From: a bacterium
GTDB lineage: Bacteria; Patescibacteriota; Minisyncoccia; Phycocordibacterales; CAIZLB01
Assembly: GCA_037127815.1 (NCBI GenBank)
Contig: JBAXXP010000001.1
Coordinates: forward strand, 104,174 to 168,173
Reading direction: 5' to 3'
DNA: 64,000 bases
A model generated the notes under the pieces. It was not told the DNA's origin and ran no database searches. It worked only from the letters and a program-made list of their open reading frames with translations. Made by a program: the position numbers and the translations under genes. This document shows, in pieces, positions 3,650 to 15,581 of the stretch; the first letter of the stretch is position 1, and each line of letters starts with the position of its first letter.

Positions 3650-4000
3650 TTATTTCTTTTTAGCTGGAGCTGCTGTTGTCGCCTTAGCTGACTTAGCTGC
3701 GGTTATTTCTGACTGCTTCTTTGCAGCATCAAGTTCCTTCTGCATCTTTCCTCCATGTCTAACGAACTTTCTTGTTGGTGAAAATTCTCCCAATCTGTGA
3801 CCTACCATTTCCTCTGTTACAAGAACTTCAACATGAGTCTTTCCATTGTGTACACCGAAGATAAACCCAACCATTTCTGGTGAGATTTGACTTCCTCTGT
3901 ACCAAGTCTTAATTACCCCAGTTGTCTGAGGGTTTTTGCCTTCTATCTTCTTTAGAAGTTTTGGGGCTATATATGGTCCTTTTTTTAGTGATCTTGTCAT
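3650..4000 (-). CDS. rpsS: 30S ribosomal protein S19 (K/A-rich C-terminal tail)
   Basis: [11 protein letters not shown]...[13 protein letters not shown]...HNGK motifs. Confidence 0.95.
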
Positions 4001-4042
4001 TGTTTGTGTGAAAATAATAGCCCGTGTTGAGCCAGTTAACGT

Positions 4043-4070
4043 ATACTAGCAAAAATAATGAAAGTGTCAA
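4043..4070 (-). promoter_or_regulatory. Putative sigma70-like promoter (TTGACA-16nt-TAGTAT on minus strand) restarting transcription at rpsS
   Basis: minus-strand TTGACA at complement 4065..4070 and TAGTAT at 4043..4048, about 40 nt upstream of rpsS start; needed because upstream genes carry their own terminators. Confidence 0.4.
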
Positions 4071-4256
4071 CCACTAAAAGGCTTATTTTAGGCATTTCGA
4101 TACTATTATTGTAAAGATTATGGTCTAATTTGGGTTTTTGACTAAAATGGCCAAATTTTGATGTTTTTTTTGCCGTTTTTTTTACTGTTTCTATTAACAA
4201 TAATTTATAGAAAATTAGTAATTATATATAAATTATTCATCATAAGGGGGAGTGAA

Positions 4257-4283
4257 GGCTCGGCGGGGTAACCCCGCCGAGCC
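4257..4283 (-). terminator. GC-rich hairpin GGCTCGGCGGGG-TAAC-CCCGCCGAGCC downstream of inserted gene A
   Basis: perfect 12-bp GC stem 9 nt after stop of 4299..4739; near-identical copy at 4871..4901. Confidence 0.5.
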
Positions 4284-4298
4284 TAAATAAATTGCCGA

Positions 4299-4739
4299 TC
4301 AAGATACGCTTTTAAACGCTTCGATTTCAGCTTCTGCAATAATGAACCGCTGCTCATAACAACGAAGTCTTTCCCACATTGGAAGTAATACAATTGAAGG
4401 ATGGTCCTCTCTAAATTGCTGCCAAAGTGGAGTAAATTCCCAAAAATGGAGCAGGTGCTGAATCTCCTTTAGAGTTACCCCATTTTCCTTATAAAACTTT
4501 TCTACAATCAGATTTTGCTTTACCTGATCTCTAGTCCCAGAGAGCTTTTGACTTGCAAAATAAAGGTTTTCTAACATCTCAACTTTTTTCCTAATTGGCA
4601 CTTCAAGATCAAGGATGCAGGAATCAGCTTCTTGAATATTAACCCAAAAAGCAAGTCTTTCCTCCGGAATACTGTTAACATCCCAAATCTGATACAAAAC
4701 ACGAAAAAATCGAGCTTTAGACATATCTAAAAATTTCAT
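4299..4739 (-). CDS. Hypothetical protein, paralog A of tandem pair inserted between rpsS and rplB
   Basis: 146 aa; shares YQIW(D/G)V..P(E/D)ER(L/M)AF, (E/D)KFY(K/W)E(N/H)GV and ERL(R/E)(C/R)(Y/F)EQR(F/Y)I motifs with 4931..5356. Confidence 0.6.
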   Translation of the reverse strand: MKFLDMSKARFFRVLYQIWDVNSIPEERLAFWVNIQEADSCILDLEVPIRKKVEMLENLYFASQKLSGTRDQVKQNLIVEKFYKENGVTLKEIQHLLHFWEFTPLWQQFREDHPSIVLLPMWERLRCYEQRFIIAEAEIEAFKSVS

Positions 4740-4870
4740 ATTTTTGAGGGTGAGAGGTTGATACTTTGGATTTGACCCGTTTGGTCGATAGAAGGAGCAG
4801 ATTTTGCACTCCGTACTTTATTTTATAACGCCATGCAGTTTTGTCAAAATTTAAAAGACTCATATATTAA

Positions 4871-4901
4871 AAGGCTCGGCGGGGTTCCCCCGCCGAGCCT
4901 T
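4871..4901 (-). terminator. Rho-independent terminator (GGCTCGGCGGGG-TTCC-CCCGCCGAGCC followed by T-run on minus strand)
   Basis: hairpin plus TTTTAATAT on minus strand directly after stop of 4931..5356. Confidence 0.65.
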
Positions 4902-4930
4902 TGCTAAAACTTCAAATCTTAGTATACAAA

Positions 4931-5356
4931 TCACGATAATCCGTCGGCAAACTCACTGTAGATATAACGCTGTTCAAACCTTTCCAGACGCTCCAAAGGA
5001 GGCAGATCTGCAACAGATACGTAATCCAAGAGGTAGTTCTTGAAAGGAAGGTTAGACTCCCAATAACGCAAGCGGAAAGCTGGATCTGGTCCAACACCAT
5101 GTTCCCAGTAGAACTTGTCGCTAAAGAGCCCCCTTTCACTGGTATAGCTACCCCAATCTTCTTCACCAATATGAAAAGCTTCCAATGATTGTAACTGAAT
5201 CTCCTTTGGCAAGCCTTCAATGTTTCCTCCTACAGGCCCAAAAAATTTATCGAGAAAAGCCATTCTTTCGTCTGGTGTTGGGCCGACTCCCCAAATTTGA
5301 TAAAGATTATTCAAGTACTCATTGCGCCCGGTCTTTACTGAACTTAACTCTTTCAT
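4931..5356 (-). CDS. Hypothetical protein, paralog B of tandem pair inserted between rpsS and rplB
   Basis: 141 aa; clear paralog of 4299..4739. Confidence 0.6.
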   Translation of the reverse strand: MKELSSVKTGRNEYLNNLYQIWGVGPTPDERMAFLDKFFGPVGGNIEGLPKEIQLQSLEAFHIGEEDWGSYTSERGLFSDKFYWEHGVGPDPAFRLRYWESNLPFKNYLLDYVSVADLPPLERLERFEQRYIYSEFADGLS

Positions 5357-5475
5357 AGTTTTGTGTTTTTGAGGTTTGTGTACTTATTCAGCGGTCAGAT
5401 GACCTATGTAAGGATGCTATTTGCACTCCTACTTTAGACTACACTCCTTAAAAATTTTGTCAAAAACAGACAAAC

Positions 5476-5504
5476 AAAAAACCCGCATTTCTGCGGGGTT
5501 TTTG
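5476..5504 (-). terminator. Rho-independent terminator after rplB (AAAACCCCGCAGAAATGCGGGTTTTTT on minus strand)
   Basis: GC stem plus T-run 40 nt downstream of rplB stop. Confidence 0.6.
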
Positions 5505-5540
5505 TTATTAAGACCAGCCTTCTGCTAATCAAACAAAATA

Positions 5541-6383
5541 TTATCTTCTCTTTCCTACCTTTCTTCTTGTAACAATATGTTTGTTTGAGTACTTCTTTGC
5601 GCGTCTTGATTTTTGTCCCTTTCCAGTTGGCTTTCCGTAGATAGAAATAGCACGTCTTCGTCCTCTTCCTTGTCTACCTTCTCCTCCTCCATGGGGGTGA
5701 TCAACTGGGTTCATGGCAGTACCTCTAACTGTAGGTCTGATACCACGGTGTCTACTAGCTCCAGCTTTTCCGATATTTTGCAAACGATTTTCATCATTTG
5801 AAACCTCTCCAATTGAAGCCCATGCAGTTTCTAGTATCTTTCTAACTTCAGTTGATGGCATCTTAACAAGGGCGTAACCCGCGTCATGAGCAATAACTTC
5901 AGCAAAAGAACCAGCTGAACGAACAAGCTTAGCACCTCCTTCAAATTTCAATTCTATGTTGTAAACAAATGTTCCAACAGGAATGTTCTTTAATGGAAGT
6001 CTGTTACCTGCTTTTACTTCAACCTTCTCGCCAACGATAAACTTATCTCCAACTTTTAGTGACTTTGGCAAAACGACGTATCGCTTTTCTCCATCAGTAT
6101 AAGTTACGAGAGAAATAAATGATGTACGGTTTGGATCGTATTCAATTGTTTCGATCTTTGCAGGAATATCTTTCTTGTCATACTTAAAGTCTATTTGACG
6201 ATAAAGTCTTTTGTGACCTCCACCTTTGTGTCTAGTTGTAATACGTCCAGTGTTGTTACGTCCTGATCCACGTCTAAACCCGTTTGTAAGGGGCTTGTAT
6301 GGCTCGTCAGTAGTAAGAATCTGAGCGTAATTAACGATAGCCATGTTTCGGCGTGAGGGGCTTGTTGGGTTAAATCTTTTCAT
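5541..6383 (-). CDS. rplB: 50S ribosomal protein L2
   Basis: 280 aa; MNPVDHPHGGGEG and GRNNTGRITTRHKGGGHKR motifs. Confidence 0.97.
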   Translation of the reverse strand: MKRFNPTSPSRRNMAIVNYAQILTTDEPYKPLTNGFRRGSGRNNTGRITTRHKGGGHKRLYRQIDFKYDKKDIPAKIETIEYDPNRTSFISLVTYTDGEKRYVVLPKSLKVGDKFIVGEKVEVKAGNRLPLKNIPVGTFVYNIELKFEGGAKLVRSAGSFAEVIAHDAGYALVKMPSTEVRKILETAWASIGEVSNDENRLQNIGKAGASRHRGIRPTVRGTAMNPVDHPHGGGEGRQGRGRRRAISIYGKPTGKGQKSRRAKKYSNKHIVTRRKVGKRR

Positions 6384-8547: not shown

Positions 8548-9741
8548 TTAGGCTACGATCTTAGTTACAACGCCGGCTCCTACAGTTCTACCTCCCTCGC
8601 GAATAGCGAATCTTGTATTGTCTTCAAGAGCAATTGGGGCTACCAATTTAACCTTGAAAGTAACTGTATCACCAGGCATAACCATGTCTACGCCCTCCTT
8701 TAGAGTAACCTCTCCTGTTACGTCAGTTGTACGTACGTAGAACTGAGGTTTGTAACCTGAGAAGAATGGAGTGTGTCGACCGCCTTCTTCCTTCTTAAGG
8801 ATATAGACTTCTGCTTCAAAATCTGTATGTGGCTTAACTGATCCTGGCTTTGCTAGAACTTGACCTCTTGCAAGATCATCCTTCTTAACACTTCTTAGTA
8901 GAATACCAGCGTTGTCTCCAGCTTGACCTTCTGACAATTGCTTGTTGAACATTTCAATACCTGTAACAACTGTTTTTTGAGTATCATGTAGTCCGATGAT
9001 TTCAATTTCTTCACCGATCTTGATTATACCTTTTTCAATTTTACCTGTAACAACTGTTCCTCTTCCTTCAATTGAGAAAATATCTTCAATAGGCATAAGG
9101 AAAGGCTTATCAGTCTCTCTAACTGGTTGTGGAATATAGTTATCTAGAGCGTCAACTAATTCAAGAACCTTCTTTGACCATTCATCATCAATACCTGGAG
9201 CTTCAAGTGCCTTAAGCGCTGAACCTCTGATAACTGGTGCATCTTCGTCAAATCCGTTCTTTGCTAGAAGCTCTCTGATTTCTGCCTCAACTAGGTCAAG
9301 CATGTCTGCATCATCAACCATGTCACACTTGTTCATGAATACAACAATCTTTGGAACACCAACTTGCTTTGCAAGTAGAACGTGCTCGCGAGTTTGTGGC
9401 ATAGGTCCGTCAGTAGCAGCAACAACCAAGATTGCGCCGTCCATTTGAGCAGCTCCTGTGATCATGTTCTTGATGTAGTCGGCGTGGCCTGGTGCATCAA
9501 TGTGAGCATAGTGTCTTGCGTTTGTAGTGTACTCACTGTGTGAAAGTGAAATTGTAATACCACGAGCCTTTTCCTCTGGGGCCTTGTCAATATCTCCGAT
9601 TGACTTAATTGTAGCCTTCATACCTGCTCTGTTAAGAACATTAAGAATAGCTGCAGTTAATGTAGTCTTTCCGTGATCAACGTGTCCAATTGTACCCACG
9701 TTAACGTGAGGCTTTGAACGATCAAAAATTTCTATTGCCAT
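8548..9741 (-). CDS. tuf: Elongation factor Tu
   Basis: 397 aa; [20 protein letters not shown]-motifs. Confidence 0.98.
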
Positions 9742-10028
9742 ATATTTGCTTGATAATTAAATGAATATATCGATATTTATATGGATATCTCCATAAATCT
9801 TTATACTCACCAATTAATAAAAATTAAATTAATAAGTTTCTAAATTTTATCCCCAGTGCTTCTCTCAGTAGTTTAGCTTAATTATGTTTGATTCTTAATA
9901 CTGCCTTAAATCAAAAAGAAGATTGGGATAAAAAACCGCCAAAAGGCGTCTAATGGATAATATCAGAAGGTGGGGGTTTGTCAATGTCAAAGCTATAACC
10001 TACCCCCCCCCACTTAAGGTTAATCAAC

Positions 10029-10090
10029 CCTGAATTCTGTTTCGGTCTTTTGACCATCGTCAGACAAGATACACATCTTATGACAGAACC
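10029..10090 (-). ncRNA. Hammerhead ribozyme, type III (HHR2): UUCUGUC|AUAAGAU-GUGU-AUCUUGU-CUGACGA-U-GGUC-AAAA-GACC-GAA-ACAGAA
   Basis: read on minus strand: GUC cleavage triplet, 7-bp stem I with tetraloop, CUGANGA box, 4-bp stem II with AAAA loop, GAA, and 6-bp stem III ACAGAA/UUCUGU; one extra U between A9 and stem II. Confidence 0.6.
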
Positions 10091-10136
10091 CGTTCACTCA
10101 ACGGGCAGAGTTGCACAGTTTATGTGCTTTATTACG

Positions 10137-10376
10137 CTATTCACATAACATTTCGAGGTATTTATCATCAAAATTTTCTACCTCATTCCAATCTTCACCT
10201 TGTCTTTTGACAAAAATGAAGTCTTCAACCCTTAAGGTTGTATTTGAAAAGACGAAGGCACAGCCTTCCTCTAGGGTCTTAACGGTTTGGAAATAAGCCA
10301 TATAGGCAAATCCACCACCCGGGGCAAAACCCCAGCACTTAACCCATGTTACCTTTGCTTTTTGTGTGTTTTGCAT
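10137..10376 (-). CDS. Small hypothetical ORF (79 aa, MQNTQKAKVTWVKCWGFAPGGGFAY...) lying between the two hammerhead ribozymes
   Basis: ATG with AGGA 13 nt upstream on minus strand; no recognised family; coding status unproven. Confidence 0.3.
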   Translation of the reverse strand: MQNTQKAKVTWVKCWGFAPGGGFAYMAYFQTVKTLEEGCAFVFSNTTLRVEDFIFVKRQGEDWNEVENFDDKYLEMLCE

Positions 10377-10439
10377 AGTTATAAACGTCCTAACTTTAGA
10401 GATTAAGGCACTCGTAGCTACACAAAACGTTAAAAAGAA

Positions 10440-10494
10440 CCACTGTTTCGCTTTTTTAAGCTCATCAGTCGAAGTACGCACTTCGAGACAGAGG
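10440..10494 (-). ncRNA. Hammerhead ribozyme, type III (HHR1): CCUCUGUC|UCGAAGU-GCGU-ACUUCGA-CUGAUGA-GCUU-AAAA-AAGC-GAA-ACAGUGG
   Basis: read on minus strand: perfect catalytic core CUGAUGA...GAAA, GUC cleavage site, 7-bp stem I with GCGU loop, 4-bp stem II (G10.1-C11.1) with AAAA loop, stem III formed by flanks. Confidence 0.75.
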
Positions 10495-11384
10495 ACGGAT
10501 AGAACGTCTATCCGTGATTTACTACAAGTACTCTATCGAGCAGTTGTAATTTCTGTTCAAAAGGTAGTTTTCTCTACCTCGGCTTTTCATCTCGCGATAA
10601 AAGCAGAACTCAAAGCAATTATTTGCTTTGAACGTACTCGCGATAATCCGCAAGGGACATCACGAGCCCGTCAACGACGACGTAGGTCATGGTTTATACT
10701 TTTTGAAATGTTCATTGCTATTAACACACTGTATTTTGGCTAATATTTATTAATTCTATTTAAGGACTCAAAATCAGCTCGATTTTGGATTAAATTAACA
10801 GTGTTTACTTATCTGTGTTGTAGTATAGCCATGTTCATATTTTTGTCAAGATGTTTTGACACTTTGTTTTTATTTTGTCATTTGTACCCTTTTATATAGC
10901 CATATTTAATCAATATAAAAGTAAATTGATAACAACAAAACTCTATAAAGGGTATACAAAATTAGAAAATATATTATATTATGTTTTTTTATATTGCCAA
11001 TCTAATTACCCAAGAATAAGGTCGTTTTAGCTTAAATCTATTAAATGTCTAAATTGCTTGACAAAAGAATCAGACATGCTACATTGTGATACGGAATTTG
11101 ACTGTACTTTCGGCTATAAAGCCGACAGATCAAAGTGTTCTAACCCAAAAGTGCAATGCCCGATTAACCCTAAAGGAAAGGTGGCTTGTCGTGAACCTAG
11201 CCGGGTTTTCACGACAGGCCTCTGAGTACTAAAAAAGGGACTTGTTTATAACTTCTGGGCATAGTAACCGCAAGCACACCATATACACCACCACCACAAT
11301 GCATGATTAATTAGAATGATTGTCCTTTTTGAAAACCCTTCATATTTGTAAACCTCCCCACCAAGGTAGTTCACAAACAAAAAA

Positions 11385-11412
11385 AGCTCGGTTCCTACCC
11401 AGGAACCGAGCT
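11385..11412 (-). terminator. Rho-independent terminator after TrmB-like gene (AGCTCGGTTCC-TACCCA-GGAACCGAGCT plus T-run)
   Basis: 11-bp stem followed by TTTTTTT on minus strand, 20 nt after stop. Confidence 0.6.
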
Positions 11413-11433
11413 AATTTTTTACCTAATTTTTTC

Positions 11434-12198
11434 TTATTTACCTTCCTCTATATTTTTAAAGGCTAATTCAAACAAAGAGGTTAGGGTTTCCGCAAAATCC
11501 TTATTATAAACAATCATTCCACCCAATTTTGATCCCAAAGTAGCTATTCTTACCTTATTGTTGTAAATACTAATATCGCAACTTAAAGGATACTTTTTAC
11601 CATCTACGAACAACCTATTCCCCAAGTTAGCACTTCTGTCAATTTCCCCTTTTGAATACGTATATATTGATTTACCGGAAATTTTCTTATCTACCCTTAT
11701 TTTACGGAATCTATTACTATCGGCCTCTGAAAACAGACTTTCTATTAAATCCTTTGGATAAATCATATACATAGTGCCGCCTTTGTCATCTTTTGATTGG
11801 AAAAGCTCCTCAGTCATACTTATAACGCCCTCTTTTCCTTCAAAAAATTTAACTACAGGCTTTTCAGCATCCTCTCTGTAAATACTCTTAAGTTGTGGAA
11901 CTATATCCTTAAGTCTTTTACTTTGTTCATCCAGCTGTATTTTACGTCTTTCAATATAAGTCTCCAGTCTTTCTGGTGGTTCAGCTTGGTATCTAACCTT
12001 TTTATCAACTAAAACTTCAAATATTAGCCCTTTATTTGAAAGCGATTCAAGTACTGGATAGATAGTTGTACGATTAATTTTAGTCTTCTCAGCTAAATCA
12101 AGTACAGAATCATTGTCTACCTCCAAAAGAGACAGGTAAACCTTTGCCTCTTTCTCTGATAAACCTAAATCTTCAAGATATTTTTCAAACATAAGCAT
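11434..12198 (-). CDS. TrmB-family transcriptional regulator (N-terminal winged HTH plus TrmB C-terminal domain)
   Basis: MLMFEKYLEDLGLSEKEAKVYLSLLE...TTIYPVLESLSNKGLI wHTH; ORF runs to 12282 but overlaps upstream gene, so start at 12192/12198 preferred. Confidence 0.7.
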   Translation of the reverse strand: MLMFEKYLEDLGLSEKEAKVYLSLLEVDNDSVLDLAEKTKINRTTIYPVLESLSNKGLIFEVLVDKKVRYQAEPPERLETYIERRKIQLDEQSKRLKDIVPQLKSIYREDAEKPVVKFFEGKEGVISMTEELFQSKDDKGGTMYMIYPKDLIESLFSEADSNRFRKIRVDKKISGKSIYTYSKGEIDRSANLGNRLFVDGKKYPLSCDISIYNNKVRIATLGSKLGGMIVYNKDFAETLTSLFELAFKNIEEGK

Positions 12199-12271
12199 AT
12201 TATACCATAGAATATTTAAATTTCGTTTTAATAGACAATTTTTGGTTTTAAATTGTACTGCAAATGTAGGA

Positions 12272-13354
12272 TTATTTACCAAATATTCCAGATAATAGAT
12301 TGTTTACACCTTGCCAGATTGAAGCAAATAACCCAAAATTAGACAACTGAGATACCTTAGTACTAATTTTAACAACACCGGTACTTGTTGCGTTAAACTT
12401 AGGATTGTTTGTATCCGTAATTACAATTTTGTAAGGTTTATCATACTGAACAGCCTGACCAACAATATCCCAGGTTACACTTGCTTTTCCTCCACCTAAA
12501 TTGGAACCAGCTGTTACTGAGCCTAAAATACTAGTTCCAACCCATCCAAAAGGAACTAACCCAATACTCACAGAATCAGTAGAAGATAAATTATTAGACG
12601 TCCAAACAATATCTTTTGTTACAACTGTTGTTTTTGTCTTAATATAGACCTTCAGATTAGGGTTACTAGTTGTTGTAGTAAAAGGTACCCAAGTCTCATC
12701 AACACTCAGAGATAATAAAGACAATGAACAAGGCAAGGAGATAGTAAGAGGAAATTGATTAGTAGTTTTTCCAGTATACAGAGCTCTTGCTTGAACCTTA
12801 GCTACTTGCCCTATTTCGTAATTATTACACAGAATATAGTTCGGAACTGTCAAAATTTCTGTAGTTGAAGCAGCGTTAATTTGCTTAATTAAAACACTAT
12901 CGATATACAAAGACCAACTATTAACCTTTGAATTTGGGATATATAGATTACCGATTTTAAACGAATGATTACCTGGGTTGCTCTCAGTATCCACAGAATA
13001 TATGTAAGGAGATGTTGTTGCAAGAACAATAGTTGAGGTAGCTACTGTTGAGCTTGCTAATTGCTTATTTAGCGTCTGAAGCTGCAGATTTAATGAGATT
13101 AGATTTTGCTGTAGTGTTGCAACAGAGACATCCGCTGAGGATAACTGGTTTTGAAGTGCTAAAATCTGTGAGTTTATTGATGAAATTTGAGTTCGAAATG
13201 AGCTAATCTGTGCAGTTGTTGATGCAATATCCTTTTTTGTTGAGTCTATCTGAGTTTGAATCTGTGCTGTTGTTGCTGCGTTTGTAATGAAGGGTGACAC
13301 CAGCATGGAAACGCCTATCAGCGATAGTGCAACCAAATATATTTTTATTTTCAT
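12272..13354 (-). CDS. Secreted hypothetical protein (signal peptide, Q/S/T-rich coiled-coil, beta-rich C-terminal domain)
   Basis: 360 aa; N-terminal MKIKIYLVALSLIGVSMLVSPFITNA signal-like; no family recognised. Confidence 0.6.
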   Translation of the reverse strand: MKIKIYLVALSLIGVSMLVSPFITNAATTAQIQTQIDSTKKDIASTTAQISSFRTQISSINSQILALQNQLSSADVSVATLQQNLISLNLQLQTLNKQLASSTVATSTIVLATTSPYIYSVDTESNPGNHSFKIGNLYIPNSKVNSWSLYIDSVLIKQINAASTTEILTVPNYILCNNYEIGQVAKVQARALYTGKTTNQFPLTISLPCSLSLLSLSVDETWVPFTTTTSNPNLKVYIKTKTTVVTKDIVWTSNNLSSTDSVSIGLVPFGWVGTSILGSVTAGSNLGGGKASVTWDIVGQAVQYDKPYKIVITDTNNPKFNATSTGVVKISTKVSQLSNFGLFASIWQGVNNLLSGIFGK

Positions 13355-13373
13355 AAGTTATATTATACAACAA

Positions 13374-13412
13374 AAAAACAACCCCTAGTTTGAGGAGTTG
13401 TTTTTTTTGTGG
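13374..13412 (-). terminator. Rho-independent terminator after fusA
   Basis: minus-strand AACAACTCC-loop-GGGGTTGTT stem followed by TTTTTT. Confidence 0.55.
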
Positions 13413-13427
13413 ATAAGTTTTATCAGA

Positions 13428-15581
13428 TTATTTTCTTGCCTCAACGATAGCCTTCTCAACGTTAGCTGGAACTGTATCGTAGTGATCAAATTCCATTGAA
13501 ACTGAACCTCTTCCCTGTGTCATTGATCTAATATCTGTTGTATAACCGAACATTTCAGATAGAGGAACCATGGCTCTAATAACTCTAATTCCACCTGGTC
13601 TATCATCCATTCCTTCAATTTGACCTCTCTTTGATGAAAGTGAACCGGTAACGTCTCCCATGAATTGTTCTGGTGTTAGAGCTTCAACCTTCATTATAGG
13701 TTCAAGAATAACAGGTCTTGCGCGTCTTGCTCCCTCTTGGAAAGCTTGAGAAGCTGCAATCTTGTAAGCGATTTCTGATGAGTCAACATCATGGTATGAA
13801 CCAAATGTTAATTCACAAGATACATTTGTTAGAGGGAAACCAGCAACAATACCTCTTTCCATAGCTTCCTTAACTCCCTTTTCAACTGCTGGAATGAATT
13901 CTGTTGGAATAACACCTCCCTTAATTGAGTCAATAAACTCAAAGTCAGCTGTTCTATGAACGTTTTTAGGAATTTTAGCTCCTTCCTCAAGTGGCTCTAG
14001 GTGCTTAATTGTCATTCTAACGTGTCCATATTGCCCCTTACCTCCAGATTGCTTAACATATTTATGTTCAGCTTCTGCACTTCCTAGAATTGTCTCTCTG
14101 TATGCAACCTGAGGAGCACCAACATTAGCCTCAACACCAAACTCTCTCTTCATTCTATCAACCATAATTTCAAGGTGTAGTTCACCCATTCCAGAAATAA
14201 CAGTATCTCCAGTTTCTGTGTTTGATGTAACTCTAAAAGTTGGATCTTCATCACCTAATTTCTTAAGTGCAACACCCATTTTCTCTTGATCAGCCTTTGT
14301 TTTAGGCTCGATTCTAAGTGAAACAACAGGTTCTGCAAATTTAATAGGGTCAAGAATGATTGGGTGATTTTCATCACAGAAAGTATGAGATGTCTTTGCT
14401 TCCTTAAGACCAACAGCCGCAACGATTTCTCCTGCAAAAACTTTCTTAACATCCTCTCTTTTATTTGCCTGAAGTCTAACGATACGCCCAAGTCTCTCCT
14501 TATTTCCTGTTGTTGAGTTGTAAATATATGAACCAGCTTCAATTGTTCCTGAATAAACACGGAAGAATGTAAGTTGTCCAACAAACGGGTCAGTTTGTAG
14601 CTTGAAAGCAAGAGCAGAAAAAGGCTCTTCATCTGAAGCGTGTCTTTCAATTACATCTCCTGTTTCTGGATCGAGACCTTTTATAGCAGGAATATCTAAT
14701 GGAGATGGAAGGTAATCGATAACAGCATCCAAAACTAGTTGAACACCCTTATTTTTAAGAGCAGAACCTGTGAAAACTGGGAATACCTTGTTCTCAATAA
14801 CTCCTTTTCTAAGAGAAGCCTTAAGCTCATCTATTGTAAACACAGCGTCATCACCTTGTTCTAGATATCTGTTCATCAACTCTTCATCAAATTCAACACA
14901 CTTCTCTACAAGCTCTTGTCTTCTCAGCTTTGACTCATCAAGCATGTCAGCAGGAATTTCTTCTTCTGTAACAGTACTTCCCATATCTCCTGTAAATGTG
15001 TATGACTTCATCTTAAGAAGGTCAATTACTCCAGACAGATTCTCTTCTTCTCCGATTGGAAGTTGCATTCTTATTGCATTCTTATTTAGTCTATCCAAAA
15101 TTGATTGATATGATCTCTCAAATGATGCACCCATTCTATCTAGCTTATTAATAAAACATATACGTGGAACGTGATATTTATCAGCTTGTCTCCAAACTGT
15201 CTCAGATTGAGCTTCAACACCAGCAACCCCATCAAATACTACAACTCCACCATCAAGAACCTTTAGAGAACGTTCAACTTCAACTGTGAAGTCTACGTGA
15301 CCTGGTGTGTCAATAATGTTGAAACGGTGCATCTTAGAAAGATCCTTACCCATGTAAACTGGATTCCAGAAACAAGTAATAGCAGCTGCAGTAATTGTAA
15401 TACCACGCTCTTTTTCTTGTTCCATCCAGTCTGTTACAGCTTCACCTTCATGAACCTCTCCAATTTTATGGCTCATTCCTGTGTAATAAAGAACACGTTC
15501 TGATGTTGTTGTCTTTCCAGCATCAATGTGGGCGATAATACCGAAGTTTCTAATTTTCTCTAATGGGTAATCACGTTGCAT
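13428..15581 (-). CDS. fusA: Elongation factor G
   Basis: 717 aa; [21 protein letters not shown] motifs and EF-G domains IV/V. Confidence 0.98.

Follow-up and report, generated by a model that had tools for sequence, protein, structure and literature searches.

In the 64-kb stretch of DNA analysed in this study (hereafter the window, to which all coordinates refer), the genes for ribosomal proteins L2 (rplB) and S19 (rpsS) of the S10 cluster are separated by two small genes, here called A and B, which encode paralogous proteins. Each gene lies in a unit of its own that runs from a promoter to a hairpin, the two paralogues are old, the slot that holds them is specific to the L2|S19 junction, and the occupant of this slot differs between close relatives. 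We consider it probable that positions 4162-5473 represent a lineage-specific accessory islet of autonomous genes with high turnover, which sits in a transcriptional break of the S10 cluster common to the whole clade.

The rplB-rpsS adjacency is normally among the most stable in bacteria. On the minus strand, which carries the islet genes, the order in the first 10 kb of the window is tuf, rpsJ, rplC, rplD, rplW, rplB, gene A, gene B, rpsS, rplV, rpsC, rplP and onwards, and the gap between rplB and rpsS measures 1,540 nucleotides (nt) and holds two genes, unlike that of a contiguous S10 operon, with a few tens of nt and no gene. A sequence-only reading of this DNA had already reported two paralogous genes of about 140 amino acids (aa) at this place, and both were found, at 4931-5356 (A) and 4299-4739 (B).

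A variable slot at the L2|S19 junction

Gene order was compared in the 80 GTDB species representatives with the closest S19 genes, of which 75 were informative for the distance between rplB and rpsS. All 80 are Patescibacteria of the Paceibacteria type, including Nomura-, Zambryski-, Taylor-, Yonath- and Vogelbacteria and others, and the organism of the window likewise belongs to the Paceibacteria, a group of ultra-small bacteria. The gap was shorter than 200 nt in 10 of the 75 genomes, 200-499 nt in 6, 500-999 nt in 15 and 1 kb or more in 22, and in a further 22 no L2 gene was present within at least 1 kb. In all, 59 of the 75 have at least 0.5 kb of unrelated cargo or no rplB within 1 kb, and adjacent rplB and rpsS are kept in 10. 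The sequence-only reading had taken the insertion for an exceptional breach of a conserved adjacency, a view that has to be given up since the junction is interrupted in about four fifths of the closest informative genomes. The cargo in these gaps includes a prokaryotic diacylglycerol kinase (DAGK_prokar, dgkA) at 15 loci, a PyrE-like phosphoribosyltransferase, OMPdecase (pyrF), MscS-like, DUF3298, pilin-like and large surface proteins, together with 112 singleton open reading frames (ORFs); the A/B family was absent from the gaps of all 80 relatives. Median spacings were 22 nt at L23|L2, 65 nt at S19|L22, 100 nt at L22|S3 and 41 nt at S3|L16, compared with 812 nt at L2|S19, where the spacing exceeded 300 nt at 42 of 53 loci versus at most one locus at each neighbouring junction. 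The variability is specific to L2|S19 and is not a general loss of synteny, and in Paceibacteria this junction is a general, fast-changing gene slot, not a one-off break. In a limited literature search, no account of a hotspot at L2|S19 in the candidate phyla radiation (CPR) came up.

The break is marked on both sides by predicted transcription signals. The rplB gene (5541..6383, minus strand; L2, 280 aa, from the ORF list), which forms the left conserved flank of the islet and whose identical copy in locus L002 matches Pfam Ribosomal_L2_N and Ribosomal_L2_C, is followed by a putative intrinsic terminator at 5474..5505 (minus strand), composed of an A-run, the stem CCCGCAGAAATGCGGG at 5482-5497 and a T-run, with a predicted fold of -17.7 kcal/mol; the same terminator follows rplB in loci L001, L101, L103 and L108. 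On the right flank, the promoter scan placed TTGACA-16-TAGTAT, with TG before the -10 hexamer, upstream of rpsS at 4043..4070 (minus strand), and a leader hairpin (GGCUC-loop-GGGCU) followed by a U-rich run lies at 4013..4035 (minus strand). Both the rplB terminator and the rpsS promoter had been picked out from the sequence alone, and these predicted signals back the earlier proposal that the ribosomal protein (r-protein) cluster is transcriptionally split at L2|S19.

The rpsS promoter had also been described as a new one, acquired with the insertion, and this part of the earlier proposal finds no support in the relatives. Among 82 sequences (the 80 relatives, the window and locus L001), 68 carry a sigma-70-type promoter within 160 nt upstream of rpsS, also where the gap measures just 55-130 nt, and its form in the clade is TTGAC[A/T]-N16-17-TAnnnT (loci L021-L100, L001, L104 and L105-L109). 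In most of them a short hairpin, commonly GAGCUC-N4-5-GAGCU, stands 6-10 nt past the promoter and leads into a U-rich run that immediately precedes the rpsS start, and stem variants such as CCCGC/GCGGG covary. In an alignment of 54 sequences, 80% of the cells are paired in a stem of seven pairs, six of which have changed on both sides; the covariation score was 0.271 versus 0.21 for shuffled alignments, none of 500 shuffles reached it and all slid controls scored lower. The leader is only about 35-50 nt long and matches no Rfam family; it may act as a 5' stabiliser, or as an attenuator or autoregulatory leader for the S19-L22-S3 and following half of the cluster. Because promoter and hairpin are conserved throughout the clade even where the gap is short, both the division of the cluster between L2 and S19 and the promoter of rpsS go back to the ancestor of the clade; they are older than the cargo and did not arise from the insertion. 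It is the possession by rpsS of its own promoter and short leader hairpin that would make the L2|S19 boundary permissive, so that DNA could be gained, lost or swapped there without polar effects on the ribosomal genes.

Members of the A/B family, in long or short form, occupy the L2|S19 slot in at least seven other related lineages; a search of JGI metagenomes with the rpsS promoter pattern had retrieved five more relatives, including L106, L108 and L109. In L001 the end of rplB and its terminator are followed by one B-type gene (P0002, 55% identical to B), the sole gene between rplB and rpsS, then by a hairpin GGCCCGGCGGGA...TCCCGCCGGGCC and the rpsS promoter. In L101 they are followed by an A-type gene (P0004, 37% identical to A) with an A-like promoter, and then by a second unit with a very similar leader and an unrelated 65-aa ORF. 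A short form stands directly after L2 on the contig of P0010; another follows the rplB terminator in L103 (P0014, with a different GC hairpin and no T-tract) and precedes a further unit; and in L104 a third one (P0008) comes after an unrelated small unit and before GGCCCGGCGGGG...CCCCGCCGGGCC and the rpsS promoter. L108 has a single short form of 113 aa and L109 a single short form as well, and no family member was found in L106 within 1.4 kb upstream of rpsS. No two of the nine slot proteins share more than 55% identity. Since each has its own orthologue in another lineage (P0004, at the same site in L101, and P0002), the A and B types are old.

The comparison with L108 bears directly on turnover. 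L2 and S19 of L108 are both 97% identical to those of the window at the amino acid level, with identities of 78% and 73% at four-fold degenerate sites. At the nucleotide level, blastn aligns the two loci at 87.8% identity up to position 5474 and at 82.8% from position 4161 on, with nothing alignable between; the 1.31-kb islet (4162..5473, minus strand) has no blastn similarity to the matching 0.63-kb segment of L108, where a different short-form member stands in place of A and B. The homology breakpoints at the islet edges are sharp. In four other relatives, homology to the window resumes at 4082-4087. Turnover of the slot content would involve homologous recombination between the flanks, which are highly conserved, the thinning of an ancestral array through differential loss, or the two together.

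Ten contigs from other samples are 100% identical to the window or differ by 7 single-nucleotide polymorphisms (SNPs) only, which is too little signal for a ratio of non-synonymous to synonymous polymorphism (pN/pS). In one contig, L009 (positions 1-1460; GCA_964546385.1, contig CAZJJP010000173.1), rplB is broken in its middle, a short way before the A/B pair, and gives way to unrelated sequence; over 1.37 kb, 7 SNPs separate this contig from the window. As a second genomic context for the pair it was considered and set aside, because the 3' end of rplB is still found immediately before the two genes; the contig probably reflects a chimeric assembly or a rearrangement at strain level.

The A and B units and their proteins

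Besides its hairpin, each of the two genes has a near-consensus promoter and a leader of its own, and these had escaped the sequence-only reading. The span given there, 4252-5356, does take in both genes; it stops short of the promoter and leader that serve gene A (5408-5463) and of the rplB terminator, and the variable segment in fact reaches to 5473 on the right. The gene A promoter (5436..5463, minus strand) consists of TTGACA (5463-5458), a 16-nt spacer and TAGTCT (5441-5436); it was not listed by the consensus promoter scan and was read from the sequence and from the alignment of the regions upstream of A and B. The gene B promoter, TTGACA-16-TAAAAT at 4820..4847 (minus strand), was called by the scan and agrees with the consensus at 11 of 12 positions. 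TTTTGACAAAA surrounds both promoters, and AGTGTAGTCTAA in the gene A promoter region is kept in L101, the locus of the A-type orthologue. A common 15-nt motif, AAGTA(C)GGAGTGCAA, directly follows both promoters and opens a small 5' stem-loop that starts 3-6 nt past the -10 hexamer and carries AAGUACGGAGUGCAA. In the A unit this leader start, with the motif AAAGTAGGAGTGCAA, lies at 5408..5435 (minus strand; pattern match, predicted fold -15.1 kcal/mol, z-score -2.7), and in the B unit, with the motif AAGTACGGAGTGCAA and the stem GGAGU...GCUCC, at 4794..4818 (minus strand; alignment, folding and pattern match). The 15-nt motif is exactly conserved in L001. A pattern search for the leader motif in metagenome contigs gave 0 matches, while the pattern does recognise the window and the related loci; samples of this kind are missing from that collection.

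In both units, the stretch from the stem-loop to the start codon (ATG at 5356 in gene A) is CA-rich, about 70 nt long and free of a Shine-Dalgarno motif. Leaders in the window are A- or CA-rich in general, and only 1 of 48 long-ORF starts carries a Shine-Dalgarno-like motif, which is below the 9% background, so that leaders of the kind seen in A and B are normal for this genome, and the organism apparently does without Shine-Dalgarno-led initiation. Rfam searches, run at E<=10 on the locus and at gathering thresholds on the window as a whole, returned chance terminator-like matches and four tRNAs only, for which reason the long A and B leaders do not represent a riboswitch or leader known to Rfam.

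As described earlier from the sequence, both genes are followed by one and the same stem with a 12-bp GC core, GGCTCGGCGGGG-N3-CCCCGCCGAGCC, which within the 64-kb window is confined to 4257-4283 and 4873-4899. The arms gave 4 matches against 0.36 expected, a number reached by none of 100 shuffles. After gene A the GC core is set in a 15-bp terminator-like stem at 4870..4902 (minus strand) with a predicted stability of -31.2 kcal/mol, followed by UUUUAAUAU; after gene B the hairpin, found by hairpin search and folding, lies at 4256..4284 (minus strand), has a predicted stability of -27.8 kcal/mol and is followed by UUCACUCC, without a U-tract. The consensus terminator scan called neither of them, and the related hairpins in L001, L103 and L104 likewise lack a U-tract; the one in L001 stands at the position of the B hairpin and differs by two compensatory pairs. 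Promoter and hairpin recur at an identical period of 616 nt across the two units. Outside the promoter, leader and hairpin, A and B are unalignable as DNA, with 31% ungapped identity versus a baseline of 26%. A duplicated gene-plus-terminator cassette, as proposed in the sequence-only reading, is plausible in view of the identical hairpins; it is not a simple duplication, given the age of the two types and the separate orthologue of each. Putatively, A and B are stand-alone monocistronic genes whose mRNAs begin at the stem-loop or close to it; insulation of the units would come from the rplB terminator and the GC hairpins, and stability of the mRNAs from the 5' stem-loop and 3' hairpin.

Terminator stems with a GCTCGG...CCGAGC core also occur after unrelated genes, at 11379-11418 in the window, 315-357 in L104, 1634-1665 in L016 and 571-600 in L020. 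They look like a lineage-wide terminator idiom, which partly explains the likeness of the islet hairpins to those behind distant family members. The idea that the hairpin travels with the gene, suggested by the GCTCGGCG...CGCCGAGC stems after distant homologues (L016, L020), was dropped because the GCTCGG/CCGAGC core is also found in unrelated terminators. Unrelated small ORFs in related slots (L101 626-760, the basic 65-aa ORF; L103 480-655) stand behind a promoter, a 5' stem-loop and a CA-rich leader as well, and these L101 and L103 modules closely match the ones that precede the adjacent family gene; a genome appears to re-use its regulatory shell for several genes or to homogenise the copies.

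Gene A (4931..5356, minus strand) encodes 141 aa with an isoelectric point (pI) of 4.7, and gene B (4299..4739, minus strand) 146 aa, or 141 aa from Met6 as in the NCBI call, with a pI of 5.7. The two proteins are 27% identical over 131 residues (BLASTP, E=1e-14) and share the motifs YQIWxV, P[E/D]ERxAF, KFYxExGV and ERLxxxEQRxI that had been quoted for them. A word-indexed search of 5.8 billion proteins returned A and B themselves and one homologue, the B-type P0002. An exhaustive profile search of 1.84 billion cluster representatives gave 17 matches at E<0.001, of which P0005 was dropped as a spurious low-complexity eukaryotic repeat protein. The family is very rare and has so far been found only on Patescibacteria-like contigs; its members, of about 85-150 aa, are unnamed and carry no Pfam domain. 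Pfam, PHROGs, NCBIfam and PADLOC searches with A, B and 15 relatives gave nothing above threshold and only chance-level matches, the single PADLOC match being a weak, chance-level one in one member. Searches of PDB sequences with the family profile and the repeat profile gave no match, and Foldseek searches of the AlphaFold2 models against PDB and BFVD gave nothing at E<=0.001.

The AlphaFold2 models have a predicted local distance difference test score (pLDDT) of 83.5 for B and 83.6 for A and a predicted template modelling score (pTM) of 0.74 for both, and they agree on an all-alpha fold of seven to nine helices in the same order. Residues 8-37 are related to residues 75-105 (hhalign probability 90%, E=1.6e-6), which defines an internal repeat of about 30 residues, [FY]Y-x3-GVG-x5-RL-x-[FY][WF], predicted to form a helix-loop-helix resembling a helix-hairpin-helix (HhH); A and B share the architecture of two such copies and C-terminal helices, and short members consist of the second repeat only and the C-terminal helix LPPxEQLxxFEQRFIHAE. 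Nearly all members are acidic (pI about 4.4-5.7) and aromatic-rich, none is hydrophobic overall, and those of the slot subclade have no long hydrophobic stretch. Because the conserved positions are aromatic and aliphatic residues of the core type (Y, W, F, L, G) and not catalytic ones, A and B probably bind a partner rather than catalyse a reaction, as far as residue conservation is a guide. Between B and its L001 orthologue, identities at the three codon positions are 0.67, 0.80 and 0.45, and four-fold degenerate sites are at chance level, so that B is under purifying selection yet deeply diverged. Fast diversification, changes in copy number and truncated forms would fit a conflict- or immunity-like role, or another role that tracks a partner, somewhat better than a core ribosomal one. 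Distant members, 18-24% identical to B, lie elsewhere as monocistronic genes next to dprA, a VTT-domain gene and others; their neighbours were considered as a clue to function and set aside, as no neighbour is shared.

Alternative explanations and known systems

The position of the islet raises the question of a link with the ribosome. A and B might be ribosome-linked factors that chaperone or regulate, for example, the basic C-terminus of L2 or the Lys/Ala tail of S19, and would for this reason be kept at the junction. In the window, as in at least seven further lineages, members do come right behind the rplB terminator or immediately ahead of the rpsS promoter, they are acidic while the tails of L2 and S19 are strongly basic, the S19 extension is specific to the clade (bioRxiv 10.1101/2022.01.07.475337), and strong promoters adjoin highly expressed genes. 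However, A and B have their own promoters and 3' hairpins and are predicted not to be co-transcribed with the r-protein genes, the gaps of the 80 GTDB relatives hold unrelated cargo and no family member, and L108, with nearly the same L2 and S19, carries a very different short form. Distant members are found elsewhere, beside dprA or a VTT-domain gene, and the divergence of slot proteins to 55% identity or less is hard to square with near-invariant ribosomal partners, and we regard this explanation as unlikely. A partner of another kind is suggested by the repeat: its consensus, h-x2-h-x-G-V-G-x3-A/E-x2-L, fits the HhH signature, Pfam gives weak matches exactly on the motif (DNA_pol_lambd_f, E=0.0028; IMS_HHH, E=0.16-0.2), and both AlphaFold2 models put a helix-loop-helix at both repeats. 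True HhH proteins would bind DNA or RNA, perhaps their own leader or hairpin in autoregulation, and the conserved 15-nt leader motif and genome-specific identical hairpins would suit a sequence-specific trans-acting factor. On the other hand, the Pfam scores are far below the gathering thresholds (the best is 17.9 bits versus a cut-off of 29.8), neither the repeat profile (E<=10) nor the whole-family profile finds an HhH protein in the PDB, and the models gave no fold match to HhH or (HhH)2 domains. Nucleic-acid binders seldom have a net charge as negative as the -3 to -18 of this family, and B has lost both glycines of the first hairpin (WDVN). From the residues and models at hand, a nucleic-acid-binding role of this kind seems quite improbable.

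The two units repeat at a period of exactly 616 nt, and their coding DNA, which cannot be aligned, is enclosed by nearly identical ends (TTTTGACAAAA...GGAGTGCAA and the 12-bp stem). This calls to mind a mobile or selfish cassette, in which each unit of promoter, leader, ORF and GC hairpin would be an integron-like, hairpin-associated (such as repetitive extragenic palindromic, REP) or miniature element with its ends as recombination sites. Slot content that differs between close relatives, and the unrelated 65-aa ORF of L101 behind a very similar promoter and leader module, would fit this view. No integrase, transposase or gene like the REP-associated tyrosine transposases (RAYT) was seen near the islet in the window or related loci, though, nor were flanking direct repeats; the hairpin and leader motif occur at this locus only within the 64 kb, the stem is a perfect short-loop GC stem and not an imperfect attC-like palindrome, and the family has no matches in viral contigs. 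The ends are ordinary promoter- and terminator-like signals, and GCTCGG...CCGAGC stems are part of other terminators in these genomes too. Orthologues, moreover, stay at the locus under purifying selection across saturated synonymous divergence. The selfish insertion that the sequence-only reading had offered as one option is hard to reconcile with these observations and with the absence of any adjoining integrase or transposase, target duplication or viral-contig match, and we give mobile cassettes little chance. A bolder idea, speculative and rather unlikely in our view, is that the slot, set in the most conserved gene cluster of the genome, is a dedicated site of cassette exchange with the near-invariant rplB and rpsS as homology arms (for example after natural transformation), shuffling in this sub-lineage fast-evolving helical-repeat proteins for conflict with hosts, phages or competitors or for tuning of the unusual CPR ribosome, with the leader motif and genome-specific hairpins as recognition sites for a co-evolving factor.

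The accessory islet in an ancestral break of the cluster is thus the explanation that we prefer, and several points weigh against it. The promoters, transcription starts and termination are consensus-level predictions, and the B hairpin, having no U-tract, possibly does not terminate transcription. The A and B hairpins are identical within one genome while orthologous hairpins differ, which the islet model does not explain; within-genome identity points to conversion or to a genome-specific recognition factor. The recombination mechanism is read from homology boundaries, for which differential loss from a larger ancestral array would be an alternative, and several of the supporting loci are short metagenomic contigs (0.8-1.6 kb). 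Finally, that eight lineages keep the genes at the same place next to rplB could instead reflect a functional link with the ribosome.

Variable islets and integration hotspots between core genes are known, for example the defence and accessory hotspots of Escherichia and Pseudomonas. The L2|S19 slot shares with them a fixed place between conserved core genes, content that differs between close relatives, sharp boundaries (5474 and 4161) and heterogeneous cargo. It differs from them in lying inside the S10 cluster, in its tiny size of 0.3-3 kb with one to a few genes, in showing no integrase, tRNA or prophage signatures, and in that the cargo of this sub-lineage is one diversifying family of small proteins and not a set of known defence systems. 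In Escherichia coli the S10 operon, rpsJ to rpsQ, is transcribed as one unit under the control of L4, which acts at the S10 leader (see also PMC3616713). The genes to either side of the islet follow the E. coli order, and the rpsS hairpin with its U-rich run recalls attenuator-type r-protein leaders; unlike the E. coli operon, the cluster has a predicted terminator after rplB in this sub-lineage and a second predicted promoter before rpsS throughout the clade.

The units resemble integron cassettes (ORF and attC) in being short, tandem, made up of an ORF and an inverted repeat, and variable in content between relatives. Unlike such cassettes, each unit has its own promoter and a perfect 12-bp GC stem with a 3-nt loop, in contrast to the imperfect attC with its extrahelical bases, there is no intI or attI, and orientation and position are fixed between housekeeping genes. 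No recombinase ORF was found within about 4-5 kb on either side of the islet, nor in the Pfam-annotated gene tables of the identical locus. With HhH proteins such as the Pol lambda/beta fingers, IMS_HHH and RuvA, the repeat ...IWGVGxxxAE+L... shares a resemblance to the G-h-G hairpin signature; the repeats are about 65 residues apart here versus about 30 in (HhH)2 domains, the proteins are acidic, and there is no significant profile or fold match, so that the resemblance is taken as a lead only. Polymorphic-toxin loci carry arrays of orphan immunity or antitoxin-like genes, and A and B are like these in being small, acidic, probably non-enzymatic, fast-diverging tandem paralogues with truncated forms and variable presence; they are unlike them in having no toxin, nuclease, secretion or recombinase gene nearby and no match to known immunity families, and this likeness is purely circumstantial.

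Gene order in the ribosomal protein clusters

The right flank of the islet, rpsS (3650..4000, minus strand), encodes an S19 of 116 aa with an Ala/Lys-rich C-terminal tail of the Parcubacteria type; this extension of about 25 aa is encoded at 3650-3740. A published account (bioRxiv 10.1101/2022.01.07.475337) describes such a tail as a specific trait of Parcubacteria and related groups of the CPR.

In the same window, the fusA-tuf junction of the str cluster is interrupted as well, by about 3.7 kb (9742-13427, minus strand) between tuf (8548-9741) and fusA (13428-15581). This insert holds a TrmB-family regulator (11434-12282) and a 360-aa coiled-coil-like protein (12272-13354), and about 1.7 kb of it (9742-11433) contains no long ORF and no Rfam match.

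The rplB-rpsS adjacency is treated as near-universal, and binning, phylogeny and models of operons rely on it when they use syntenic r-protein blocks. Islets between core genes are already known; what is new here is the position inside the S10 cluster, the extent across a whole clade and a novel protein family as cargo. A junction that is routinely open and quickly changing in a large CPR class bears on gene order in the CPR and on the regulation of the r-protein cluster, for which a second promoter and leader upstream of rpsS are indicated. The A/B family consists of uncharacterised repeat proteins with confident predicted structures and is tractable for structural and binding work, and the slot itself offers a compact, well-bounded place to study the gain and loss of genes in tiny, streamlined genomes.

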